Shown piece by piece: positions 8,943-41,652 of a stretch of DNA of 64,000 nt. A program made the translations under genes and the position numbers. Source of the stretch: an uncultured Bacilli bacterium (GTDB taxonomy: Bacteria; Bacillota_I; Bacilli_A; RF39; UBA660); contig CAKOXO010000005.1 of the NCBI GenBank assembly GCA_934130165.1, forward strand, positions 6,251 to 70,250. The letters are read 5' to 3'. Under the pieces are notes generated by a model. That model saw only the letters and a program-made list of their open reading frames with translations, was not told the origin of the DNA and searched no databases. The first letter of the stretch is position 1. Each line of letters opens with the position of its first letter.

Positions 8943-10742
8943 ATGGAAATACTAACACGTAAAGAAATAAAAAAAGAAGATAAATGGAATATAGATGCGG
9001 TATATGGAAGTATTGAAGAATTTAATAATGATGTAGACTTATTAGAAAAAGAGTTAGATAAACTTGTCTATATGGAGAAAAATTTTCTTTCTAATTCAAA
9101 AGAATTTAGTAATTTTTTTATTCAGGATGAGAAAGTATCAAGATTACTTGAAAAACTTTATATTTACGCTAATTGTAAAAATGATGAGGATAAGGGAAAT
9201 AGTGTGTATCAAGAATTAAAGGGAAAAATAATTAATTTATTTGCTCTTTACAATGAAAAGACATCATCTGTTATTCCTAAAATTATACAAGAAGATACTG
9301 AAACTATTAATAGATATGTTTTAGAACAAGAGTCATTAAAACCATATAAACACTTCTTTGAAACTATTATCAATAGAAAAATTCATACTTTAGATGAAAA
9401 AGTAGAAAAAGTATTATCTATGTATCAGCCAGTTTTATCAGCCTCTGGTCAAACATCATCATATCTAACAAATGCAGATTTGAAGCTAGGGATGATTAAG
9501 GATGAAGATGGTAATGATGTTTCCTTAACAGAAGCAAATTACTCTACTTATATAAAATCACCTAATAGAGATGTTAGAAAACAAGCATTTAAGAATTTGT
9601 ATTCTGCATATAGTGGAGTTATTAATACTTTGTCATCAACATATTCAACTACTGTTAATATGGATTCTATAACCGCAAAACTTAGAAATTATGATAATTC
9701 TATTTCAATGTATTTAAATCCTAATAAAATACCAATTGAATTATATAATAATTTAATTAGTGTTGTAAGAAATAATTTAGATACTTTGTATGATTATTAT
9801 GACTTAAAGAAAGATATTTTGAATTTAGATGAATTTCATTTATATGACTCATATGCTAAAGTAATAAAGGATAATGATAGAAAGTATACTTTTGATGAAG
9901 CAAAAGATATTGTTATTAAAGCTTTAAGTGTTTATGGTGATGAGTATATTAATGTATTAAAAACGGCTTTTTCTGATGGTTGGATAGATAAATATCCTAA
10001 TAAGGGTAAAAAGTCAGGTGCATACTCTACGGGTAGTGTTGATACAATGCCTTATGTATTATTAAACTTTACTGGTGATTATAACGATGTTTCAACACTT
10101 GCTCATGAATTAGGTCATTCTATGCATTCATATTTTACAGTGAAAAATAATCCATATATAACTGCAGATTATCCTATCTTTTTAGCAGAAATCGCATCAA
10201 CTACTAATGAATTATTATTGAGTCATTATATGTATGAACATTCTACAAGTAAAGATGAAAAATTGTCTATTTTAAATGAAAAACTTGATTTATTTAAAGC
10301 AACAATTTATCGTCAAACCATGTTTGCTGAATTTGAAAAAAATGCTCATGATTATGTTGATAGTGGCAATATTCTAACGAAAGATTATTTAGATGATATG
10401 TATTATGATTTAAATAAAACATATTTTGGACCCAATGTAGTTATAGATGAAGATATAAAATATGAATGGGCTAGAATTCCACATTTCTATACTCCATTTT
10501 ACGTATATCAATATGCTACAAGTTTATCTATTTCATGTTATGTAGCTTTAAATATTATCAATAAAACTCCTGGATTTGTTGAAAAATATTTAGAATTTTT
10601 ACAATCAGGCGGAAGGGATTATCCTTTAGAAGTTTTGAAAATTATTGATGTTGATTTAAAAGATACTAAAGTATTTGAAAGTGCTTTGAAAGATTTTAAA
10701 AACACATTAGATGAATTTAAAAAAAATTATTATGAGAAGTAG
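8943..10742 (+). CDS. pepF: oligoendopeptidase F (M3B family)
   Basis: [11 protein letters not shown] HExxH zinc motif. The roughly 600 aa length and overall similarity are typical of PepF. Confidence 0.85.
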
Positions 10743-10753
10743 GAGGTATAAAA

Positions 10754-11896
10754 ATGGCAGATAAAAGAGATTATTATGAGGTTTTAGGGGTTAGTAAAAC
10801 TGCTTCTGAACAAGAAATAAAAAGTGCTTTTAGAAAAAAGGCTAAACAATACCATCCAGATTTAAATAAAGACAATCCAGATGCTGCTGAAAAGTTTAAA
10901 GAAGCTCAAGAAGCTTATGAAGTTTTATCTGATGAGCAAAAAAGAAAAATGTATGATCAATATGGCCATGCCGGTGTATCAGGATCAGCATCTTCAGGAT
11001 TTGGTGGTTTTGGTGGTGCCGGATTTGATGCTAGTGACTTTGATTTTGGTGATATTTTTGATAATATCTTCGGTGGTGGATTTGGTGGATTCACATCAAA
11101 CGGAAGAAGTTCAAAATCACGTGCTAGTAGAGGTTCAGATTTACTTATGAGAATAAATCTTAGTTTCGATGAGGCTATATATGGTTGTGAAAAAGATATA
11201 AACTTAGATGTAGTAGAAGAATGTAGTGAATGTCACGGAGAAGGAGGATTTGATCCTGAAACCTGTGAAAGATGTCATGGAAGTGGAACAATTACAACTG
11301 AACAACATACTATCTTAGGATCATTTGTTTCTAAAACTACTTGCCCTTCATGTCAAGGTGAAGGTAAAATCTTTAAAACAAAGTGTAACACTTGTCGTGG
11401 AAAGGGTAGAGTAAAGAAAAACAAAACCATAACCGTTAATGTTCCCGCAGGTATAGATAATGGTAATAGACTTAGAGTATCTGGAAAGGGAAATCCTGGA
11501 ACAAACGGGGGCCCTAATGGGGACTTATATTTAGAGTTCTATGTTGAGGAGCATGAATACTTTGTAAGAGATGGTGATGATATCTATCTAGAGGTACCAA
11601 TTACTATTACTGAGGCTATATTAGGTTGTAAAAAAACAATTCCTACATTATATGGCAATGTTAAATTAACAATACCAGCAGGAGTTGATTCAGGAGATAA
11701 ACAACGTATAAGAGGAAAAGGAATTGATAATAAAAATAAAGGCTCAAAAGGTAATATGTACGTAATTATGAAAGTCATTACACCTAAAAAACTTTCTAGA
11801 GAGCAAAAGAAACTTATAGAATCATTAAATAACACTAAATTGGATGATACTGTGATTAGTAAGTTTAATAAATTTACAGAAAAAAACGGAAAATAA
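10754..11896 (+). CDS. dnaJ: molecular chaperone DnaJ
   Basis: J-domain (DYYEVLGV...HPDLNK), a Gly/Phe-rich linker, and four CxxCxGxG zinc-finger repeats. Confidence 0.95.
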
Positions 11897-33482: not shown

Positions 33483-33710
33483 ATGGCAGAGAAAAAAGAA
33501 AAAAGTTTTGAAGAAAATTTAGAAAACTTAGAAGAAATAGTAAAAAAATTAGAAAATGGAGATATTCCACTTGATGATGCAATCAAGGAATTCAATAAGG
33601 CTATGGAACTTGCTAAAGTATGTGATAAAAAATTAAAAGAAGCAGAAAAATCATTAACAAAAATTGTAAGTGAAGATAATACTTTAGAAGATTTCGATAC
33701 AAAAGAATAA
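33483..33710 (+). CDS. xseB: exodeoxyribonuclease VII small subunit
   Basis: SFEENLENLEEIVKKLENGDIPLDDAIKEFNKAMEL, the canonical XseB helix pair. Confidence 0.9.
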   Translation: MAEKKEKSFEENLENLEEIVKKLENGDIPLDDAIKEFNKAMELAKVCDKKLKEAEKSLTKIVSEDNTLEDFDTKE

Positions 33711-33737
33711 AAACTACTGAAAAATGTAGTTTTTTCT
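33711..33737 (+). terminator. Rho-independent terminator after xseB
   Basis: Stem aaactac / gtagttt with loop tgaaaaat, followed by ttttt. Confidence 0.75.
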
Positions 33738-33790
33738 TGTGTTTTTTTAAATTTTTTAGTATAATAGGCACTTATTAGAGGGGGTTATAT

Positions 33791-34813
33791 GTGATGGAAT
33801 TTATAAGAATTGATCCACATGAAGTAACTAGTGAAGAAATTGCTAAAGCTATTACATCTAATTGTAAAACTGTAAAACTAATGAAAAAAGAAATTGAAAA
33901 ATTAGAACAATTCAACCAAGACTATCATAATAGTGTTAAAACTAGTGAAAATGATAGTGGCAAAAGTATAGAAAAAGAAGAAAATATAGAAGAAGAAATT
34001 ACTAGTAATACACCAACAGACTTTGACAATAAAGTGGACTATTACTATTCTTTAATTGATTCAATACCTATATCAGAAAAACTTAATGAAGAAATAGAGA
34101 CTATCTTACCATCTAATAAGAATGTTGATTATAATGATATTATCATGAGATTAAAATTGGAATTTTTTAGGAATATTAAAGAATTAAAAGAATTCATCGA
34201 GGAAGAAGATTTATCAGTAGATGAGTTGAAAGAGTTCAAAGAAGAAATCAAAGCTAATCAATTAAAAATAGCTTCAATCGATTATATAAATAGTAAAAAA
34301 GAAGAAAATAAAAGTAATGACGATAGTAAAGAAAATAACTTGATTTTTGTTCCAACAGAGGGAGGAAACATAAGAGTAATTGATGAAATTAAGAATATTG
34401 ATGTAAGCTTTTTATCTGACTTTAAGAAATTATTTGACTCTATAAAAGATGGCACATTTAAAAATGTAAAAAGATACAACAATAGTAAAAACTTTTTAAC
34501 ATCAAGCGTTGCAGAAGTAAAAGATTTCAAAATAAGAGTTGTATTTGATAGAATTTCTAAAAATGACTATGCCTTAATAACAGCATTTATTAAGAAAAAT
34601 GATAATGATAAGGGATATAGAACTTCACTTGATTTAAAGATTATAAATTATTTAAAACAAAAGGATAGACTAAAGGAATTAGTTAATAACGATGAATATA
34701 TGGCTAAACAAGGTTTGTTAGAAAAAGAATTATATAGTTGTTTTGCAAATGATACTCTTACAAGAGAGGAGAATAAAAATGGATGCACTATTAAAACAAA
34801 TAGAAAAAAATAA
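33791..34813 (+). CDS. hypothetical acidic protein with possible RelE/ParE-like C-terminal region
   Basis: Own promoter (TATAAT about 33757) and RBS GAGGGGG. The N-terminal 230 aa are acidic and helical. C-terminal DFKIRVVFDRISKNDYALITAFIKKND...GY loosely resembles the RelE/ParE toxin-fold signature. No confident family. Confidence 0.4.
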   Translation: MMEFIRIDPHEVTSEEIAKAITSNCKTVKLMKKEIEKLEQFNQDYHNSVKTSENDSGKSIEKEENIEEEITSNTPTDFDNKVDYYYSLIDSIPISEKLNEEIETILPSNKNVDYNDIIMRLKLEFFRNIKELKEFIEEEDLSVDELKEFKEEIKANQLKIASIDYINSKKEENKSNDDSKENNLIFVPTEGGNIRVIDEIKNIDVSFLSDFKKLFDSIKDGTFKNVKRYNNSKNFLTSSVAEVKDFKIRVVFDRISKNDYALITAFIKKNDNDKGYRTSLDLKIINYLKQKDRLKELVNNDEYMAKQGLLEKELYSCFANDTLTREENKNGCTIKTNRKK

Positions 34814-36626
34814 AGATAATCTACAGGCCAAGTTAAACGAACCAAATGAAGAAAGTGATTTCTTTAGAGAATTCAGTAGTAAGCTATCCTTAAATGTTAT
34901 GAATAACCTTGTGAGGTTTGATATATTAGACTTTATAAAAGCAAGATTTCTTGCATCAATTAAAGACAAAAACTATGAAGAAATATCAGCTATTATCGAA
35001 GAGATAAGACCTTTATTCAATTTTCAAATGCAACCAATAGCATTTTTTAATCTTTTTGAAAACATAGCTAATTTAATAGTTAGTGTTGAAAAAGATGATT
35101 TATTAAACATAATAAAAAACAAAAAAAGAAAAAAGTTAAATAAAGATGACAAAAAAAGAGTTTTAACGATCGAAAATATTCAAAAAAATGCAAATATAAA
35201 TATAGAAAATTTTATCAGATTATGTTATGACCAAATTGAGATAGTAGCTAATACCATAGAACTTATGGTGGCTTTATATAAATTCAAAGAAACACACGAA
35301 TATTTTTCACAAATAAAAGCAGGTGCATTATCTAGTGAAGTAAAAAAACAATTAACAAAAGCAGAAAAAGAGTTTTTTGAATATGAATATAATACAAAAA
35401 GCATTGAAAAAGTAATCAAAGATATTCGAGAATATTCAGATAAAGTCATTTCAGAAGAGGAAACAAAAAAGAAAAAGATATCAAAAAGTTTTATGAATTA
35501 TACATATACTGAAAATTGGATAAGAAAAATTAAAGATGGTCAGGAAATAACTTCTATTCCAAGTAAAGTGATGCAATTAGATGATGAAGAATTAAAAAAG
35601 CAAATTTTAGAAAAAGTCTATAATAATAACATGAGTATATATACACAAATTGAGAAAAAATACAACGATTTATCATCTAATTCATATAATAGATACAGTT
35701 TATTACTAGGACAATATGGAATAGATATTTCTAAATATAATATAGATATTACAAATGATATAAATATTGTTAAAAAAATGCTAAAATTAATATCATCACT
35801 AGATATTAAAAATCCTTATAAAATTGTAGAAATAATTAATACCTCAAAATTAGAAATTGTAGAAAGCATAAATAATTTAGTAAAAAAAGGATATATTGAT
35901 AATGAATACGTAAATAATAATATTAATATATTTAGTGGTAGTTATACTGCTTTAATATCAAATATAGAAGAGTTTAAAAAAGAGGGATTATCATTATCTT
36001 CTATAAGTAAATTAAAAGATTCATTATGTGAAGATTCCGATACAATTCAAAGAAATATTGCAGTTTTGAAAGAGTATGGTTTATTTTCAAGCCTAGGTGA
36101 TTGCTCCTCAGCAAGTTTTTTAAATATTGAACAATTAGAGCAAAAAATTGATAAACTTTTAGAACTAGGTATGGAACAATTTTTAAAAGATGATTTATCC
36201 TTACTTAATTATGAAAATAGTCTATATGATAAAATTTTATTAGCATATAAATTAAATATTCCAATAGAAGATACTAATAGTTTGCATAATATTCTATCTT
36301 CACCTTTTGTTGTTTCTGATGATGATATAGATACTTATTTATTTAATGTTAGTAGAAAAAGCCTTGATAGTTTAGAAGATATAAATATAAATAAAACTGA
36401 TTTATTAGAATTATTAGGAAAAAAGCAGAGTAGTGAAAATGTATATGATTTTGATGGTGTTTTAATCTCTAAAAATAAAGTGTCAAGAAACTTAGAAAAT
36501 AGTGATGATGAAGTACCTTTAAAAACAGTTTTATTATGTATGATTGATGATAAAATTCTAGATACTGATGAATTAGAAAAAATTACTAAATCTCTATATC
36601 CTAAAGAAAAACAATATAAAAAATAA
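34779..36626 (+). CDS. hypothetical helical-repeat protein (615 aa)
   Basis: ATG at 34779 with RBS AGAGGAGAA 6 nt upstream, overlapping the preceding gene by 35 nt. Long, Lys/Glu-rich, no Walker or catalytic motifs seen. Confidence 0.45.
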   Translation: MDALLKQIEKNKDNLQAKLNEPNEESDFFREFSSKLSLNVMNNLVRFDILDFIKARFLASIKDKNYEEISAIIEEIRPLFNFQMQPIAFFNLFENIANLIVSVEKDDLLNIIKNKKRKKLNKDDKKRVLTIENIQKNANINIENFIRLCYDQIEIVANTIELMVALYKFKETHEYFSQIKAGALSSEVKKQLTKAEKEFFEYEYNTKSIEKVIKDIREYSDKVISEEETKKKKISKSFMNYTYTENWIRKIKDGQEITSIPSKVMQLDDEELKKQILEKVYNNNMSIYTQIEKKYNDLSSNSYNRYSLLLGQYGIDISKYNIDITNDINIVKKMLKLISSLDIKNPYKIVEIINTSKLEIVESINNLVKKGYIDNEYVNNNINIFSGSYTALISNIEEFKKEGLSLSSISKLKDSLCEDSDTIQRNIAVLKEYGLFSSLGDCSSASFLNIEQLEQKIDKLLELGMEQFLKDDLSLLNYENSLYDKILLAYKLNIPIEDTNSLHNILSSPFVVSDDDIDTYLFNVSRKSLDSLEDININKTDLLELLGKKQSSENVYDFDGVLISKNKVSRNLENSDDEVPLKTVLLCMIDDKILDTDELEKITKSLYPKEKQYKK

Positions 36627-36705: not shown

Positions 36706-37689
36706 ATGAAAATTAAAAACAAACTACTAAATGCAATAATTCTCTTTTTACTTATTATACCACTAAATGTATTTGCTTATTCATCTTACATTATTCCAGG
36801 TGGGGAAACAATTGGAATAGAGGTTAATTCGAAAGGTGTATTAGTTGTAGGTTTTTATAAAGTAAACAACTCCTATATTGGACGTTCAGCTGGTTTTGAA
36901 GTTGGAGATAGAATAATTAAGTTAAATAATAAGGAAGTAAATAATATATCTTCAATGATAGAAACTATAAACAAAACAGACAATAATACAGTAGAATTTA
37001 CTATTTTAAGAGGAACCTCTGAAAAGAATATTAGCCTAAATCTATCTGAAGATGGTGATGGAGTATTAAAAACCGGATTATATGTAAAAGACAGTATCAA
37101 CGGAATTGGTACACTTACTTATATAGATCCATCTACTAATATATTTGGTGCTTTAGGGCATGAAATAATAGAAAAATCAACTGCTGAAAAATTCGAAATA
37201 AAAGATGGTATTATATTTGGAGCAAATGTAGTAGGAATAGAAAAAAGTACTAATGGAAATGCTGGAGAAAAGACAGCAACATATAACAAAACTGAAGTAT
37301 TTGGTAAAATTACTGGGAATGAAATATCTGGTATCTTTGGTAAATATACATCAAATGTAGAAGGTAAAGAAAAATTAGAGGTTGCTGAAAGTAAAGATAT
37401 AAAAACTGGAGAAGCAACTATCAGAACTGTTATAAAAGACGATAAAATAGAAGAATTTAAAATCAATATAATTAAACTAGATGATAACAGTGATACTAAA
37501 AATATTTTATTTGAAGTAGTTGATGACAGACTATTAAAAGAAGCAGGAGGAATTGTTCAGGGAATGAGTGGCTCTCCAATTATTCAGAATAATAAAATAA
37601 TAGGTGCAGTTACTCATGTAATTGTTAATGATACTACAAAAGGTTATGGTATATTTATTACAACTATGTTAAAAGAAGGAGAAAATTAA
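36706..37689 (+). CDS. spoIVB: stage IV sporulation protein B (SpoIVB peptidase, S55)
   Basis: Signal anchor, PDZ domain (GDRIIKLNNKEVNN...), then GIGTLTYIDPSTNIFGALGHEI and the catalytic-Ser region GMSGSPIIQNNKIIGAVTHVIVNDTTKGYGIFI, almost identical to the B. subtilis SpoIVB motif. Confidence 0.85.
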   Translation: MKIKNKLLNAIILFLLIIPLNVFAYSSYIIPGGETIGIEVNSKGVLVVGFYKVNNSYIGRSAGFEVGDRIIKLNNKEVNNISSMIETINKTDNNTVEFTILRGTSEKNISLNLSEDGDGVLKTGLYVKDSINGIGTLTYIDPSTNIFGALGHEIIEKSTAEKFEIKDGIIFGANVVGIEKSTNGNAGEKTATYNKTEVFGKITGNEISGIFGKYTSNVEGKEKLEVAESKDIKTGEATIRTVIKDDKIEEFKINIIKLDDNSDTKNILFEVVDDRLLKEAGGIVQGMSGSPIIQNNKIIGAVTHVIVNDTTKGYGIFITTMLKEGEN

Positions 37690-37711
37690 AAGGGAGAGAA
37701 TCCCTTTTTTT
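37688..37711 (+). terminator. Rho-independent terminator after spoIVB
   Basis: Stem aaaaggga / tccctttt with loop gagaa, followed by tttt. Confidence 0.7.
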
Positions 37712-37754
37712 GTATAAATAAATATTTTTAATTAATACTAATAATGGTGATAAT

Positions 37755-38471
37755 ATGAATATTGATTTTATAGAAGCATTCAAGATAATTCCTAGAAGTG
37801 TAGCCTCTTTAATTGTATTATTTTTAATAACAAAACTAATGGGAAAAAAACAAGTATCTGAACTTAGTTTATTTGATTACGTAATAGGAATATCTATTGG
37901 TAATTATACAGCTGAAATGGTAATGAATTTTGATTACCAATATATTAATGGAATTATTGCAATATTAACATTTGGAATAATTTCTTATTTAGTTTCTATT
38001 TTAACTATGAAAAGTATGTCATTAAGGCGTTTTTTAATAGGAGTACCTACAATCATTATAGATGAGGGAAAAATAAGCCTAGAGGCCCTTAAAAAGGCTA
38101 AATTAGATATTAATGATTTTTTAGAACAATGTAGAGGTGAAGGGTATTTTGATGTTTCTGAAATAAGTTCTGCAATATTAGAAGTAAATGGAAAAATAAG
38201 CATACTACCAAAAAGAGATTATCAAGTTCCTACACTAAAAGATTTAAAAATTAAAGCAAATAAAGAATATTTATCAGTAAATGTCATTATTGATGGAAAT
38301 TTAATGGAAAACAATTTAAAAAATTCTAATAAAAACAAAGCTTGGTTAGATAAAGAGTTAGAAAAACAAGGTTATAATGGTTATAAAAATATATTACTAG
38401 CTACTATCACTAATGATTCATTAAACATATTTGATAAAGATACAAAAACACCTAAAAAAGTTTTAGAATAA
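37755..38471 (+). CDS. DUF421 (YetF-like) membrane protein
   Basis: N-terminal TM region with LMGKKQVSELSLFDYVIGISIGNYTAEMV, the conserved DUF421 core. Common in spore-formers. Confidence 0.65.
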   Translation: MNIDFIEAFKIIPRSVASLIVLFLITKLMGKKQVSELSLFDYVIGISIGNYTAEMVMNFDYQYINGIIAILTFGIISYLVSILTMKSMSLRRFLIGVPTIIIDEGKISLEALKKAKLDINDFLEQCRGEGYFDVSEISSAILEVNGKISILPKRDYQVPTLKDLKIKANKEYLSVNVIIDGNLMENNLKNSNKNKAWLDKELEKQGYNGYKNILLATITNDSLNIFDKDTKTPKKVLE

Positions 38472-38531
38472 CCTTTAAAATTAGTTAATTTAGTAGTATA
38501 ATATTGTGTCATAGTGATTGGAAGTGTAATT

Positions 38532-38828
38532 ATGAAAGTATGGAAAAAAATAAGTTTAGAAAATAGTATTAAAGAAATAGATATTGTATCTAAAGCTTTA
38601 ACAAATTATATATATTCCAGTAAGACATTATCAGATATAACTTCAAAATATAATATTTCAGATGAAGATATTGAAAATCTTAATAAATATACTATGGATA
38701 GAGTAGCAGGACTCTTGTTACTATATGTTAGTAAAAATAACAAAAGGATAAATGACATAGTAAATAAATATAATACAAATAATAATTTAAAAGTTAAACC
38801 TATTGTTGAAGGTTATGTTGAAAAATAA
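38532..38828 (+). CDS. hypothetical protein (about 98 aa)
   Basis: ORF with a possible ATG at 38532 (the track start at 38514 is GTG). A strong terminator follows. Confidence 0.35.
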   Translation: MKVWKKISLENSIKEIDIVSKALTNYIYSSKTLSDITSKYNISDEDIENLNKYTMDRVAGLLLLYVSKNNKRINDIVNKYNTNNNLKVKPIVEGYVEK

Positions 38829-38856
38829 AAGAGCTCATTATTATTGAGCTCTTTTA
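38827..38856. terminator. bidirectional Rho-independent terminator
   Basis: Stem aaaagagctca / tgagctctttt with loop ttattat. It serves convergent genes on both strands. Confidence 0.8.
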
Positions 38857-38940
38857 AATATACATTAACACACTTAAGAATGTTATAAGCATTACTAAAA
38901 CCAATATTATAGAAACAATTTTTATTACTTTTTTATTCAT
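38854..38940 (-). CDS. unannotated small hydrophobic peptide (28 aa), putative small membrane protein
   Basis: On the minus strand: AGAGGTGAATAT-ATG, then MNKKVIKIVSIILVLVMLITFLSVLMYI-stop. Consensus RBS at 5 nt spacing. A TTACAA, 16 nt spacer, TATAAT promoter lies upstream. Too short for the ORF track. Confidence 0.45.
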   Translation of the reverse strand: MNKKVIKIVSIILVLVMLITFLSVLMYI

Positions 38941-39042
38941 ATATTCACCTCTTTTATAATTATAAAAGAATTGTCCTAAATTGTAAATCATTAATATTAA
39001 TAATTATAAACCTAGTCTAATATTATTGAATAGGTGAAATAT

Positions 39043-39639
39043 ATGAAAAAAGCTAGAAAAATAAGAAAAAGTAATAAGCTAATTTTAAAATTAATGATCA
39101 TATCAATAATCTCAGTCTTAATAGGTATATTTTATATTGCAATATTATCAAACAGCAATAAAGTATTAATAAAAGAAAATCTAGAAACATACTTTGAAAG
39201 TCTTAATAAGCTAAATTATATAAAGGCATTAATCAAATGTTTAACATCTAATATGATTACAATATCAAGTATATGGTTACTTGGAATATCTATAATCGGT
39301 GTTTTTTTAATTATTATAATTCTAATTATTAAAAGTTTTGCCTTAGGTTTTACAATAAGTAGTTTAATATATTTTTATAAGTTAAAAGGTATAATTATTT
39401 CTATAATATATATTATTCCTTTAATTATTAACTTATTTGTAATTATTATCTTAAGTTATTATGGAATAATTTTTTCCAAAAATCTAAATAGACTTTTATT
39501 TTTAAAAAAAGATGTTAACTTCAAAAATATAATGCGAAAATACATAAAAATTTTACTATTTTCTACTATATGTATAGTTATAAGTAGTTTAATAGAAATA
39601 TATATAGTTCCAAATATATTAAAACTTTTACAAATTTAA
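39043..39639 (+). CDS. spoIIM: stage II sporulation protein M
   Basis: Core motif ITISSIWLLGISIIGVFLIIIILIIKSFALGFTISSL is collinear with B. subtilis SpoIIM ([35 protein letters not shown]). About 200 aa, 5-6 TM helices. ATG at 39043 with RBS AGGTGA. Confidence 0.7.
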   Translation: MKKARKIRKSNKLILKLMIISIISVLIGIFYIAILSNSNKVLIKENLETYFESLNKLNYIKALIKCLTSNMITISSIWLLGISIIGVFLIIIILIIKSFALGFTISSLIYFYKLKGIIISIIYIIPLIINLFVIIILSYYGIIFSKNLNRLLFLKKDVNFKNIMRKYIKILLFSTICIVISSLIEIYIVPNILKLLQI

Positions 39640-40884: not shown

Positions 40885-41652
40885 ATGGAACAATTAAATA
40901 AATTACTAACTGAATTAGGAATAAGTAAGGTACGTTTAGCAAAATATTTAGGAGTTTCAAGACAAATGCTATATAATTATTTAGCACTTGATTCACTAAA
41001 TTCTTGGCCAAAGGAAAAAACTGTTAAATTATTAAGTTTACTAAATTTAAAAGAAATAGATGATATTAATTCATTAGAAGTAACTGGTGAATATATAATA
41101 GAAGTTGAATATAGATTAAATGAAGGTGTTAAAGATACATCAAATAAAGAAATATTAACTGATTTAAAAGGTTTTAATAAAAAGGAACAAGAAATATTAG
41201 CTGATATTATTAGCCTTTTAAAAGAAAAATTAGCCGATGATAAAACTAAAAATACATATACAACATATTGTTATTTATATCACTTTTTACAATCTATGGA
41301 AACAACACCAGAACTTAATTACATTTTAGCATATATGTCAAAATCATTAGGTTTCACAGAACCAATGGAATTCATTTATGATAAAGAGCAACAATTTATT
41401 TTTGAAAGTATTCTATTTAGTGGTATGACTTTATATAATAATGGTGGTGCTTCTAAAACAAAGTTAGCTCAATCACACCAACGTTTTGTTGAAGATATTG
41501 AACATAAAAACGAAGAAAAATTAAGTCGTACTCAAGAGTTAAATACTGCTAAAGTACAAGCATTAAAAGAATTAGGCTATACAGAAATAAATGAAAATAA
41601 TGCAAAGGAAGTATTAGAAAAAATAGCTGAAATTCAATCAAGAAAAGTTTAA
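40885..41652 (+). CDS. HTH-domain protein (XRE-like), putative regulator
   Basis: N-terminus LTELGISKVRLAKYLGVSRQMLYNYL is a helix-turn-helix. The remaining 200 aa are of unknown function. Confidence 0.55.
   Translation: MEQLNKLLTELGISKVRLAKYLGVSRQMLYNYLALDSLNSWPKEKTVKLLSLLNLKEIDDINSLEVTGEYIIEVEYRLNEGVKDTSNKEILTDLKGFNKKEQEILADIISLLKEKLADDKTKNTYTTYCYLYHFLQSMETTPELNYILAYMSKSLGFTEPMEFIYDKEQQFIFESILFSGMTLYNNGGASKTKLAQSHQRFVEDIEHKNEEKLSRTQELNTAKVQALKELGYTEINENNAKEVLEKIAEIQSRKV

Follow-up and report, generated by a model that had tools for sequence, protein, structure and literature searches.

What is a pair of genes without names doing between xseB and spoIVB, and is it a newcomer there or an old resident? 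The question is raised by a 64,000-nt stretch of DNA from an uncultured Bacilli bacterium (contig CAKOXO010000005.1), here called the window. Its xseB-spoIVB interval (33.7-36.7 kb) holds a two-gene operon, open reading frame 1 (ORF1) followed by ORF2, both on the + strand. An original prediction, made from the letters alone, had taken the pair for an inserted defence or toxin-antitoxin (TA)-like module that breaks the gene order of Bacillus subtilis. We find that the pair is an uncharacterised multidomain module of the RelE/ParE superfamily with a novel large partner family, and that its evolutionary regime is unusual: it is a vertically inherited, chromosomally fixed and fast-diversifying bicistronic operon.

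The first clue to function comes from the C-terminal part of ORF1. The ORF1 family has 239 detectable homologues of 320-350 amino acids (aa), and an AlphaFold2 (AF2) model built from 42 of them reached a mean predicted local distance difference test score (pLDDT) of 81.8. In this model, the C-terminal domain (pLDDT ~84-93) consists of a strand (182-185), two helices (194-200 and 204-219), three strands (239-244, 247-253 and 258-266) and a helix (273-296), giving a beta-alpha-alpha-beta-beta-beta unit (aa 182-266) followed by two long helices (aa 273-318). Performing Foldseek searches against the PDB, we found matches to this C-terminal unit only. The top matches were the Streptococcus pneumoniae HigB structures 6af4 and 6af3 (E 2e-4 to 9e-4, prob 1.0, template-modelling score TMt 0.56-0.68), followed by RelE 3g5o (TMt 0.74), 2khe and 3bpq. 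The family profile points the same way: PF05973 (Gp49) was matched at E <= 1 by 15 of the 42 family members (best 2e-5), and the homologue P0142 carries a precomputed PF05973 match, while the window ORF1 itself is unmatched. Sequence-profile searches of the PDB, run with protein P0142 and with alignments A2, A3, A4 and A5, detected no relatives. The ORF1 C-terminal domain is thus predicted, from the model, to have the Gp49-type HigB fold of the RelE/ParE superfamily (BECR fold). The original prediction had suspected a RelE/ParE-like C-terminus, and model, Foldseek and family profile now place it at aa ~180-318.

The residues of this domain were compared with those of Mycobacterium tuberculosis HigB-TAC by hhalign. 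For the HigB-TAC sequence in the alignment, agreement with PMC9098466 covers the residues and positions cited there. In that toxin, K58, E66, R68, N73, R77, F93, K95, Q98 and K99 are catalytic-pocket residues (PMC9098466). Six of the nine align to conserved ORF1 residues (K223=K58, E241=E66, K243=R68, R248=R77, F265=F93 and K267=K95), and in HigB-TAC mutation of most of these six abolishes toxicity (PMC9098466); N73, Q98 and K99 are without a conserved counterpart. Across the 42 homologues, K223, E241, R248, F265 and K267 are invariant or near-invariant, and position 243 alternates between K and R. With a family median pI of 8.7 the domain is basic, and its dN/dS of 0.08 between alleles indicates strong purifying selection.

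The rest of ORF1 behaves differently between alleles: residues 1-75 differ with a dN/dS of 0.6, and the C-terminal tail retains 59-72% identity. The N-terminal domain is acidic across the family (pI 4.6) and carries the conserved residues N23, Y83, Y84, P106 and K129. In the model, its helices extend over aa 13-171 and are broken by a disordered acidic linker (aa 51-71). It returned no fold or family match.

The second protein appears to found a family of its own. Exhaustive HMMER searching (E <= 1e-3, clustering at 50% identity) yielded 449 ORF2 clusters, of which the best 150 are nearly all 580-690 aa long; a profile-based word search found no homologues beyond the same 52 proteins. No sequence relative of ORF2 was found in Pfam, NCBIfam, PADLOC, PHROGs or the PDB. 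Likewise, no helix-turn-helix (HTH) or antitoxin family was common to the 45 members scanned whole or to the eight C-terminal regions scanned at E = 10. Judged by its sequence, ORF2 represents a novel large protein family. Diverged RecN, SbcCD, DnaD/DnaB and EzrA were considered and rejected by eye: Walker and phosphoesterase motifs and transmembrane segments were lacking, and no family matched. Neither ORF1 nor ORF2 of the window has a transmembrane segment. Both are also without an assignment in Pfam or NCBIfam, and the original prediction, too, had seen no motif that it could assign. Scans of the two proteins and their relatives against Pfam, NCBIfam, PADLOC and PHROGs yielded Gp49 alone, and this for some ORF1 relatives.

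The ORF2 model was built from nine sequences; its overall pLDDT was 64, and it was confident only at residues 300-480 (pLDDT 77-92). It is almost wholly helical apart from one small beta-hairpin at residues 555-564, so the earlier description of a 615-aa all-helical protein holds nearly to the letter. The conserved C-terminal region (aa 251-575) contains the motifs KIDxxLELGxE...LxLLN and RTYxxxGVLISKNKVxRNL, the latter in a small alpha/beta element at ~aa 550-575. Because this region is acidic, nucleic-acid binding is disfavoured, and it more likely binds protein. Residues 358-480 are predicted to form four ~31-aa units, each of one long and two short helices, with the long helices ending in L-x3-G-[LIF]. 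These units recall the mTERF solenoids, and MTERF1 and MTERF4 were among the top Foldseek matches, but non-significantly (E 1.1-3.5, TMt 0.17-0.40). Fold searches of ORF2 against the PDB and BFVD gave nothing significant, Pfam mTERF (PF02536) did not match ORF2 even at E = 10, and the internal repeat signal was weak (best hhalign self-match probability 41%). The region also differs from nucleic-acid-binding solenoids in its acidity. An mTERF-like solenoid in the predicted structure is a lead only.

ORF2 is an obligate partner of ORF1, and the pair encodes one two-protein unit. A survey of one genome per species for ORF1 relatives gave 55 loci, and in all except two an ORF2 homologue lay 3' of ORF1, with the order unchanged; in L053 ORF1 is a truncated remnant of 76 aa, and in L055 the contig ends. 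A further argument for a single unit is a natural fusion. Ten strain contigs carry an XseB identical to that of the window, and among them the slot takes three forms: class A (339 + 615 aa), class B (337 + 621 aa) and a single ORF of 739 aa. The 739-aa form, carried by two strains (L068:5312-7531 and L069:5312-7531, corresponding to window 33794-36626), joins ORF1 residues 1-311 in frame to ORF2 residues 190-621. ORF1 from ~312 on and ORF2 residues 1-189 are lost (class-B numbering), and a pair of 13-nt direct repeats, GAAAAAGAATTAT, bounds the deletion.

Of the 2220 nt of the fusion ORF, 80 differ between the two alleles; dN/dS is 0.20 and dS 0.11, similar to the flanks. The fusion hence persists under purifying selection, and a maintained fusion, as Rosetta-stone evidence, indicates that the two proteins act together as a single physical unit. 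Once the chains are tethered, the most variable segments, namely the tail of ORF1 and the N-terminal 189 residues of ORF2, are dispensable. We infer that these two segments form a cognate docking interface, which would explain both the co-diversification of the variable segments and the coexistence of paralogous tandem pairs.

Is the pair an insertion at this site? The slot is filled, by the pair or the fusion, in 10 of the 10 strain contigs, and it is also filled in relatives whose flanks are only 70-83% identical. The GC content of the pair (0.20-0.26) is that of its flanks, and neither flanking repeats nor an integrase was found. No relatives turned up in 2.9 million viral contigs, in phage records or in plasmids. 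PADLOC-DB 2.0 gave chance-level matches only (DpdA, E 0.0027, and NsnC, E 0.0014, each in one protein). Moreover, ORF1 identity tracks Obg identity across loci (Spearman 0.69), a sign of vertical descent. The gene order of B. subtilis is not ancestral here, and the claim of a module inserted in a syntenic break does not stand.

The wider distribution leads to the same answer. ORF1 relatives occur in 53 species, all of them uncultured gut metagenome-assembled genomes labelled 'Bacilli bacterium', 'Tenericutes', 'Mycoplasma sp. CAG:877' or Ca. Faecimonas. At 37 loci the pair sits in a second housekeeping context, addB-addA-(variable)-pair-rplU-prp-rpmA-obg, which further counts against an insertion. 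The xseB-pair-spoIVB context of the window belongs to its sublineage: xseB lies upstream in L006, L007 and L010, and L013 shares the spoIVB side only. A third context recurs in L021, L028, L030 and L032. Neighbours look housekeeping-like by eye (UMP kinase-like, DinG-like helicase, EEP-family nuclease-like). Comparing synteny with relatives, to which the original prediction had pointed, shows a pair conserved across 53 species. A chaperone, a regulator or another third conserved component was also considered and dropped, since no neighbour is constant across loci. In L006 (10865-12235), and also in L007 and L010, an extra gene of 454-456 aa, absent from the window, lies between ORF2 and spoIVB; judged by eye, its C...H...D pattern (VCLGYAQVF...GHARN) resembles that of transglutaminases.

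Despite this fixed position, the pair diverges far faster than its surroundings. Between sublineages, flanking proteins are 68-83% identical, whereas ORF1 is 42-43% and ORF2 25-31% identical. In the rplU context, Obg retains 85-96% identity against 31-87% for ORF1 and 18-87% for ORF2. Within the species, we compared the window with L056. The flanks were 97-100% identical in amino acids (dN <= 0.009, dS 0.01-0.11), ORF1 was 80% identical (dN 0.10, dS 0.43) and ORF2 74% (dN 0.16, dS 0.34); for ORF2 residues 61-250, identity fell to 43% (dN 0.40, dS 0.78). Because synonymous divergence is raised too, the alleles are old and the proteins not merely relaxed. The alleles also recombine: L062 is a mosaic in which a class A segment (35619 to 36219) interrupts a class B sequence, and L061 has further foreign patches. 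Full tandem ORF1-ORF2-ORF1-ORF2 arrays are present at seven loci in six distinct genomes (L004, L009, L020, L023, L024, L029 and L038), and partial ones in L011 and L012. These arrays lie upstream of rplU, and their copies are mutually only 35-43% (ORF1) and 24-37% (ORF2) identical.

What could such a unit do? We tentatively read it as a HigBA-type toxin-partner or abortive-infection switch, a reading to which we give somewhat less than an even chance. The likeness to Gp49-type HigB (PF05973; 6af3/6af4; HigB-TAC) lies in the beta-alpha-alpha-beta-beta-beta-alpha fold with its long C-terminal helix, in the basic character of the domain and in the pocket residues that align (K, E-x-[KR], R and F-x-K-K). 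Gp49-family toxins are described in a recent survey as ribosome-dependent mRNases encoded toxin-first (Gerdes 2025, PMC11980606). ORF1 likewise precedes and overlaps its partner gene, in agreement with the toxin-first order of Gp49/HigB modules. On the other hand, the toxin domain of ORF1 is the C-terminal third of a 339-aa protein with a conserved acidic helical N-domain, and the window ORF1 stays below all Pfam thresholds.

CapRel-SJ46 is a fused toxin-antitoxin defence protein. Like it and the multidomain or fused RelE/ParE toxins, the pair embeds a BECR toxin domain in a larger architecture, joins a conserved effector to a hypervariable regulatory part, and has toxin-partner fusions (the 739-aa alleles). 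Multidomain and fused RelE/ParE toxins have been surveyed, among them 69 gp49-HTH fusions, and the ORF1/ORF2 architecture is absent from the list in the main text of that survey (PMC11980606). It differs from the fused toxins in that an N-terminal extension precedes the toxin and the fused partner is not an HTH antitoxin.

In the switch that we favour, the basic HigB-like domain would enter the ribosomal A site and cut mRNA. The RNase would be held inactive by acidic surfaces, provided by the ORF1 N-domain, the acidic C-terminal region of ORF2 or both. The hypervariable parts (ORF1 residues 1-75 and tail, and the N-terminal half of ORF2) would serve as a cognate docking surface, a trigger-sensing surface, or both. 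A trigger would then free the RNase and arrest translation, in the manner of HigBA or abortive infection. From the pattern of alleles, selection looks frequency-dependent, with phage as one possible source. In a more specific version, the whole gut lineage would keep a HigB-type ribosome-dependent RNase fixed in its core chromosome, beside ribosomal-protein and repair genes. The helical partner would restrain the RNase and sense a changing trigger, such as phage proteins, through a hypervariable half that is maintained as deep alleles and reshuffled by recombination. The pair would then be a core-genome, balancing-selected abortive-infection or self-recognition system, with ORF2 as a new kind of antitoxin or sensor; in that full form we regard it as unlikely. 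As for the defence or TA-like module of the original prediction, the deep within-species alleles, mosaics and tandem copies are what it would lead one to expect, while ORF2 is not a recognisable antitoxin and PADLOC gave no match.

Several observations weigh against a toxin-partner switch. Type II TA modules typically comprise adjacent coupled genes, and the pair agrees (35-nt overlap, ~60 coupled junctions, and a layout that suggests co-transcription). They also have a small, labile antitoxin with an HTH, ribbon-helix-helix or similar DNA-binding domain that neutralises the toxin, whereas ORF2, a helical protein of 615 aa, lacks any DNA-binding domain of the antitoxin type and is ten times as large as antitoxins usually are. 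TA or defence modules, whose distribution is patchy, mobile or accessory, rarely have a fixed housekeeping position such as this one, which was seen in 53 species and in every strain of the species examined; the failure to find PADLOC matches, or relatives in viral contigs, phages and plasmids, goes in the same direction. The T-Q-K that follows the Gp49 F-x-K-K (Q98 and K99 in HigB-TAC) is replaced by S-D-N-D-K in the ORF1 family. Values of dN/dS are 0.2-0.6 and exceed 1 nowhere except in one comparison of a 39-codon tail. Finally, fusion alleles without the ORF2 N-terminus persist, so this segment cannot be the sole neutraliser.

The likeliest rival is a domesticated RelE-fold factor with a housekeeping role, though we still consider it rather unlikely. 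Here the HigB-like domain would be a ribosome- or RNA-binding, or mildly nucleolytic, part of a constitutive ORF1-ORF2 complex with a tuning role in translation or RNA turnover, and the divergence would reflect weak constraint on helical linkers in an AT-rich reduced genome. The presence of the pair at conserved housekeeping positions in every strain and species examined, the correlation with Obg, the lack of any mobility signal and the viability of the fusion alleles all speak for it, as does a strong, constitutive-looking sigma-A promoter with a ribosome-binding site (RBS) upstream in many loci. However, within a species it is not the proteins alone that diverge: synonymous divergence, too, is 4-8 fold above the flanks. 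This excess, the mosaic alleles and the deeply diverged tandem copies retained in several genomes are better explained by balancing or diversifying selection than by a relaxed constraint, and neither protein matches a known housekeeping family.

The pair could instead be a catalytically inert scaffold, with the RelE fold kept only for protein binding and the complex serving as a structure or adaptor with no link to RNA cleavage. The missing Q98/K99 equivalents and an acidic partner of no antitoxin type would suit such a role, and two M. tuberculosis relatives, HigB2 and HigB3, are non-toxic and miss several of the pocket residues (PMC9098466). Yet K223, E241, K/R243, R248, F265 and K267 are conserved over 42 diverse homologues, mutation of most of their HigB-TAC counterparts abolishes toxicity, and the basic surface and long basic alpha-3 helix are retained, which makes this alternative improbable. 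A recently inserted mobile defence or TA island displacing ispA...recN is hardly credible: it can claim the pair's own promoter, its position after a terminator and the toxin fold, against the slot being occupied in all 10 strain contigs and in more distant relatives, the flank-like GC, the lack of repeats and integrase, and the absence from the viral, phage and plasmid collections.

If the toxin-partner reading is true, the pair would represent a new architecture in the RelE/ParE superfamily, namely an acidic N-domain, a Gp49/HigB domain and a ~620-aa partner without known relatives. It combines a core-like position and vertical descent with within-species alleles that are nonetheless deep, mosaic and sometimes tandem-duplicated. 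To our knowledge, such a combination of core position and deep mosaic alleles has rarely been documented for TA-like loci. The pattern makes the purpose of chromosomal TA modules directly testable in a defined family, the in-frame fusion alleles offer a ready genetic experiment on which parts are needed, and the locus can be used as a strain-level marker for these gut bacteria.

The layout of the locus is given in Table 1. We placed the ORF1 start at its ATG because every homologue begins MEF or MEY. The start codon of ORF2 lies 7 nt past GAGAGGAG, inside ORF1. The overlapping pair of an acidic ORF1 and a 615-aa ORF2 followed by spoIVB had been described correctly, ORF1 now counting 339 aa. 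In ~60 pairs the junction keeps an RBS within ORF1 and an overlap of the ATGA or ATGAnTAA type, and from this arrangement we take the two genes to be translationally coupled, as had been proposed.

Table 1. Positions of the ORF1-ORF2 pair, its predicted domains and its candidate transcription signals in the window.
Feature	Position	Strand	Details
Terminator-like hairpin after xseB with U-rich tract	33700..33748	+	core stem 33710-33717 / 33726-33733
Putative sigma-A promoter	33737..33765	+	-35 TTGTGT (33737-42), 17-nt spacer, -10 TATAAT (33760-65); read from sequence
ORF1	33794..34813	+	339 aa, pI 5.1; RBS GAGGGGG at 33778-33784; alternative GTG at 33791
ORF1 N-terminal acidic helical domain	33794..34318	+	aa 1-175; AF2 secondary structure
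ORF1 predicted HigB/Gp49-like (RelE/ParE superfamily) domain	34331..34747	+	aa 180-318, long C-terminal helix included
ORF1 variable C-terminal tail	34748..34813	+	aa 319-339; overlaps ORF2 start; low pLDDT
ORF2	34779..36626	+	615 aa; ATG 34779; RBS GAGAGGAG at 34764-34771
ORF2 hypervariable N-terminal half	34779..35528	+	aa 1-250; highest column entropy in family
ORF2 conserved acidic C-terminal region	35529..36503	+	aa 251-575; conservation profile; pI 4.9

Within the overlap, just 5' of the ORF1 stop, there is a run of seven A residues (34804-34810), and with one A fewer ORF1 would read on into ORF2 as a fusion. Production of a fusion by programmed frameshifting or transcriptional slippage at this run was rejected, as the frame relation and the A-runs vary across loci. 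From the sequence, the run is probably incidental.

Upstream, the strong terminator claimed after xseB is a plausible AU-rich hairpin of 8 bp with a U-run, and an equivalent hairpin precedes ORF1 in many related loci. Its strength was overstated: the RNA folds with -10.4 kcal/mol (z -2.7 vs shuffles), and a consensus terminator scanner did not flag it, the stem having <3 G-C pairs. A putative separate promoter reads TTGTGT-17-TATAAT, although in the window it falls below the threshold of the promoter scanner. At the same position, the sister allele L056 and many distant loci have a strong TTGCAx-17-TGnTATAAT (extended -10), followed in many related loci by an AAGGGGG RBS. No terminator was found 3' of ORF2. 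In some alleles, short repeats or palindromes, such as TTGCATTTTTTTGCATTTTTTGGTATAAT in L056 (upstream of 9022-11866) and CTTGCAAAAACAAG in L004, overlap the -35 region of the ORF1 promoter. Their pattern varies between loci, and they could be candidate operator sites.

The genes 5' of the pair are mutS, nusB, xseA and xseB; on the 3' side spoIVB is followed by a YetF/DUF421 gene and then SpoIIM. The spoIVB gene (36706-37689) is genuine, with a TIGR02860 score of 316.7 bits (cut-off 305.25) and a Peptidase_S55 domain. Sporulation genes of the window include SpoIVB, SpoIIM, SirA and DUF1540 (36706-39639; L056:14282-21599), and judging by this gene content its organism is probably a spore-former. 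The rplU-context relative L001 has a response regulator 3' of obg, with an HPt-like N-terminus by eye and no Spo0A_C match; for this reason the pair is probably not tied to sporulation.

Two further proteins of the window stand out among the neighbours. A 104-aa ORF 3' of the YetF-like gene (38514-38828) evolves fast, being 48-50% identical in relatives against 70-83% for its neighbours, and has only weak Sigma70_r4 and Spo16_C matches. A 255-aa protein (40885-41652), with only a weak N-terminal HTH_3 match, is conserved in position among relatives (75-100%).

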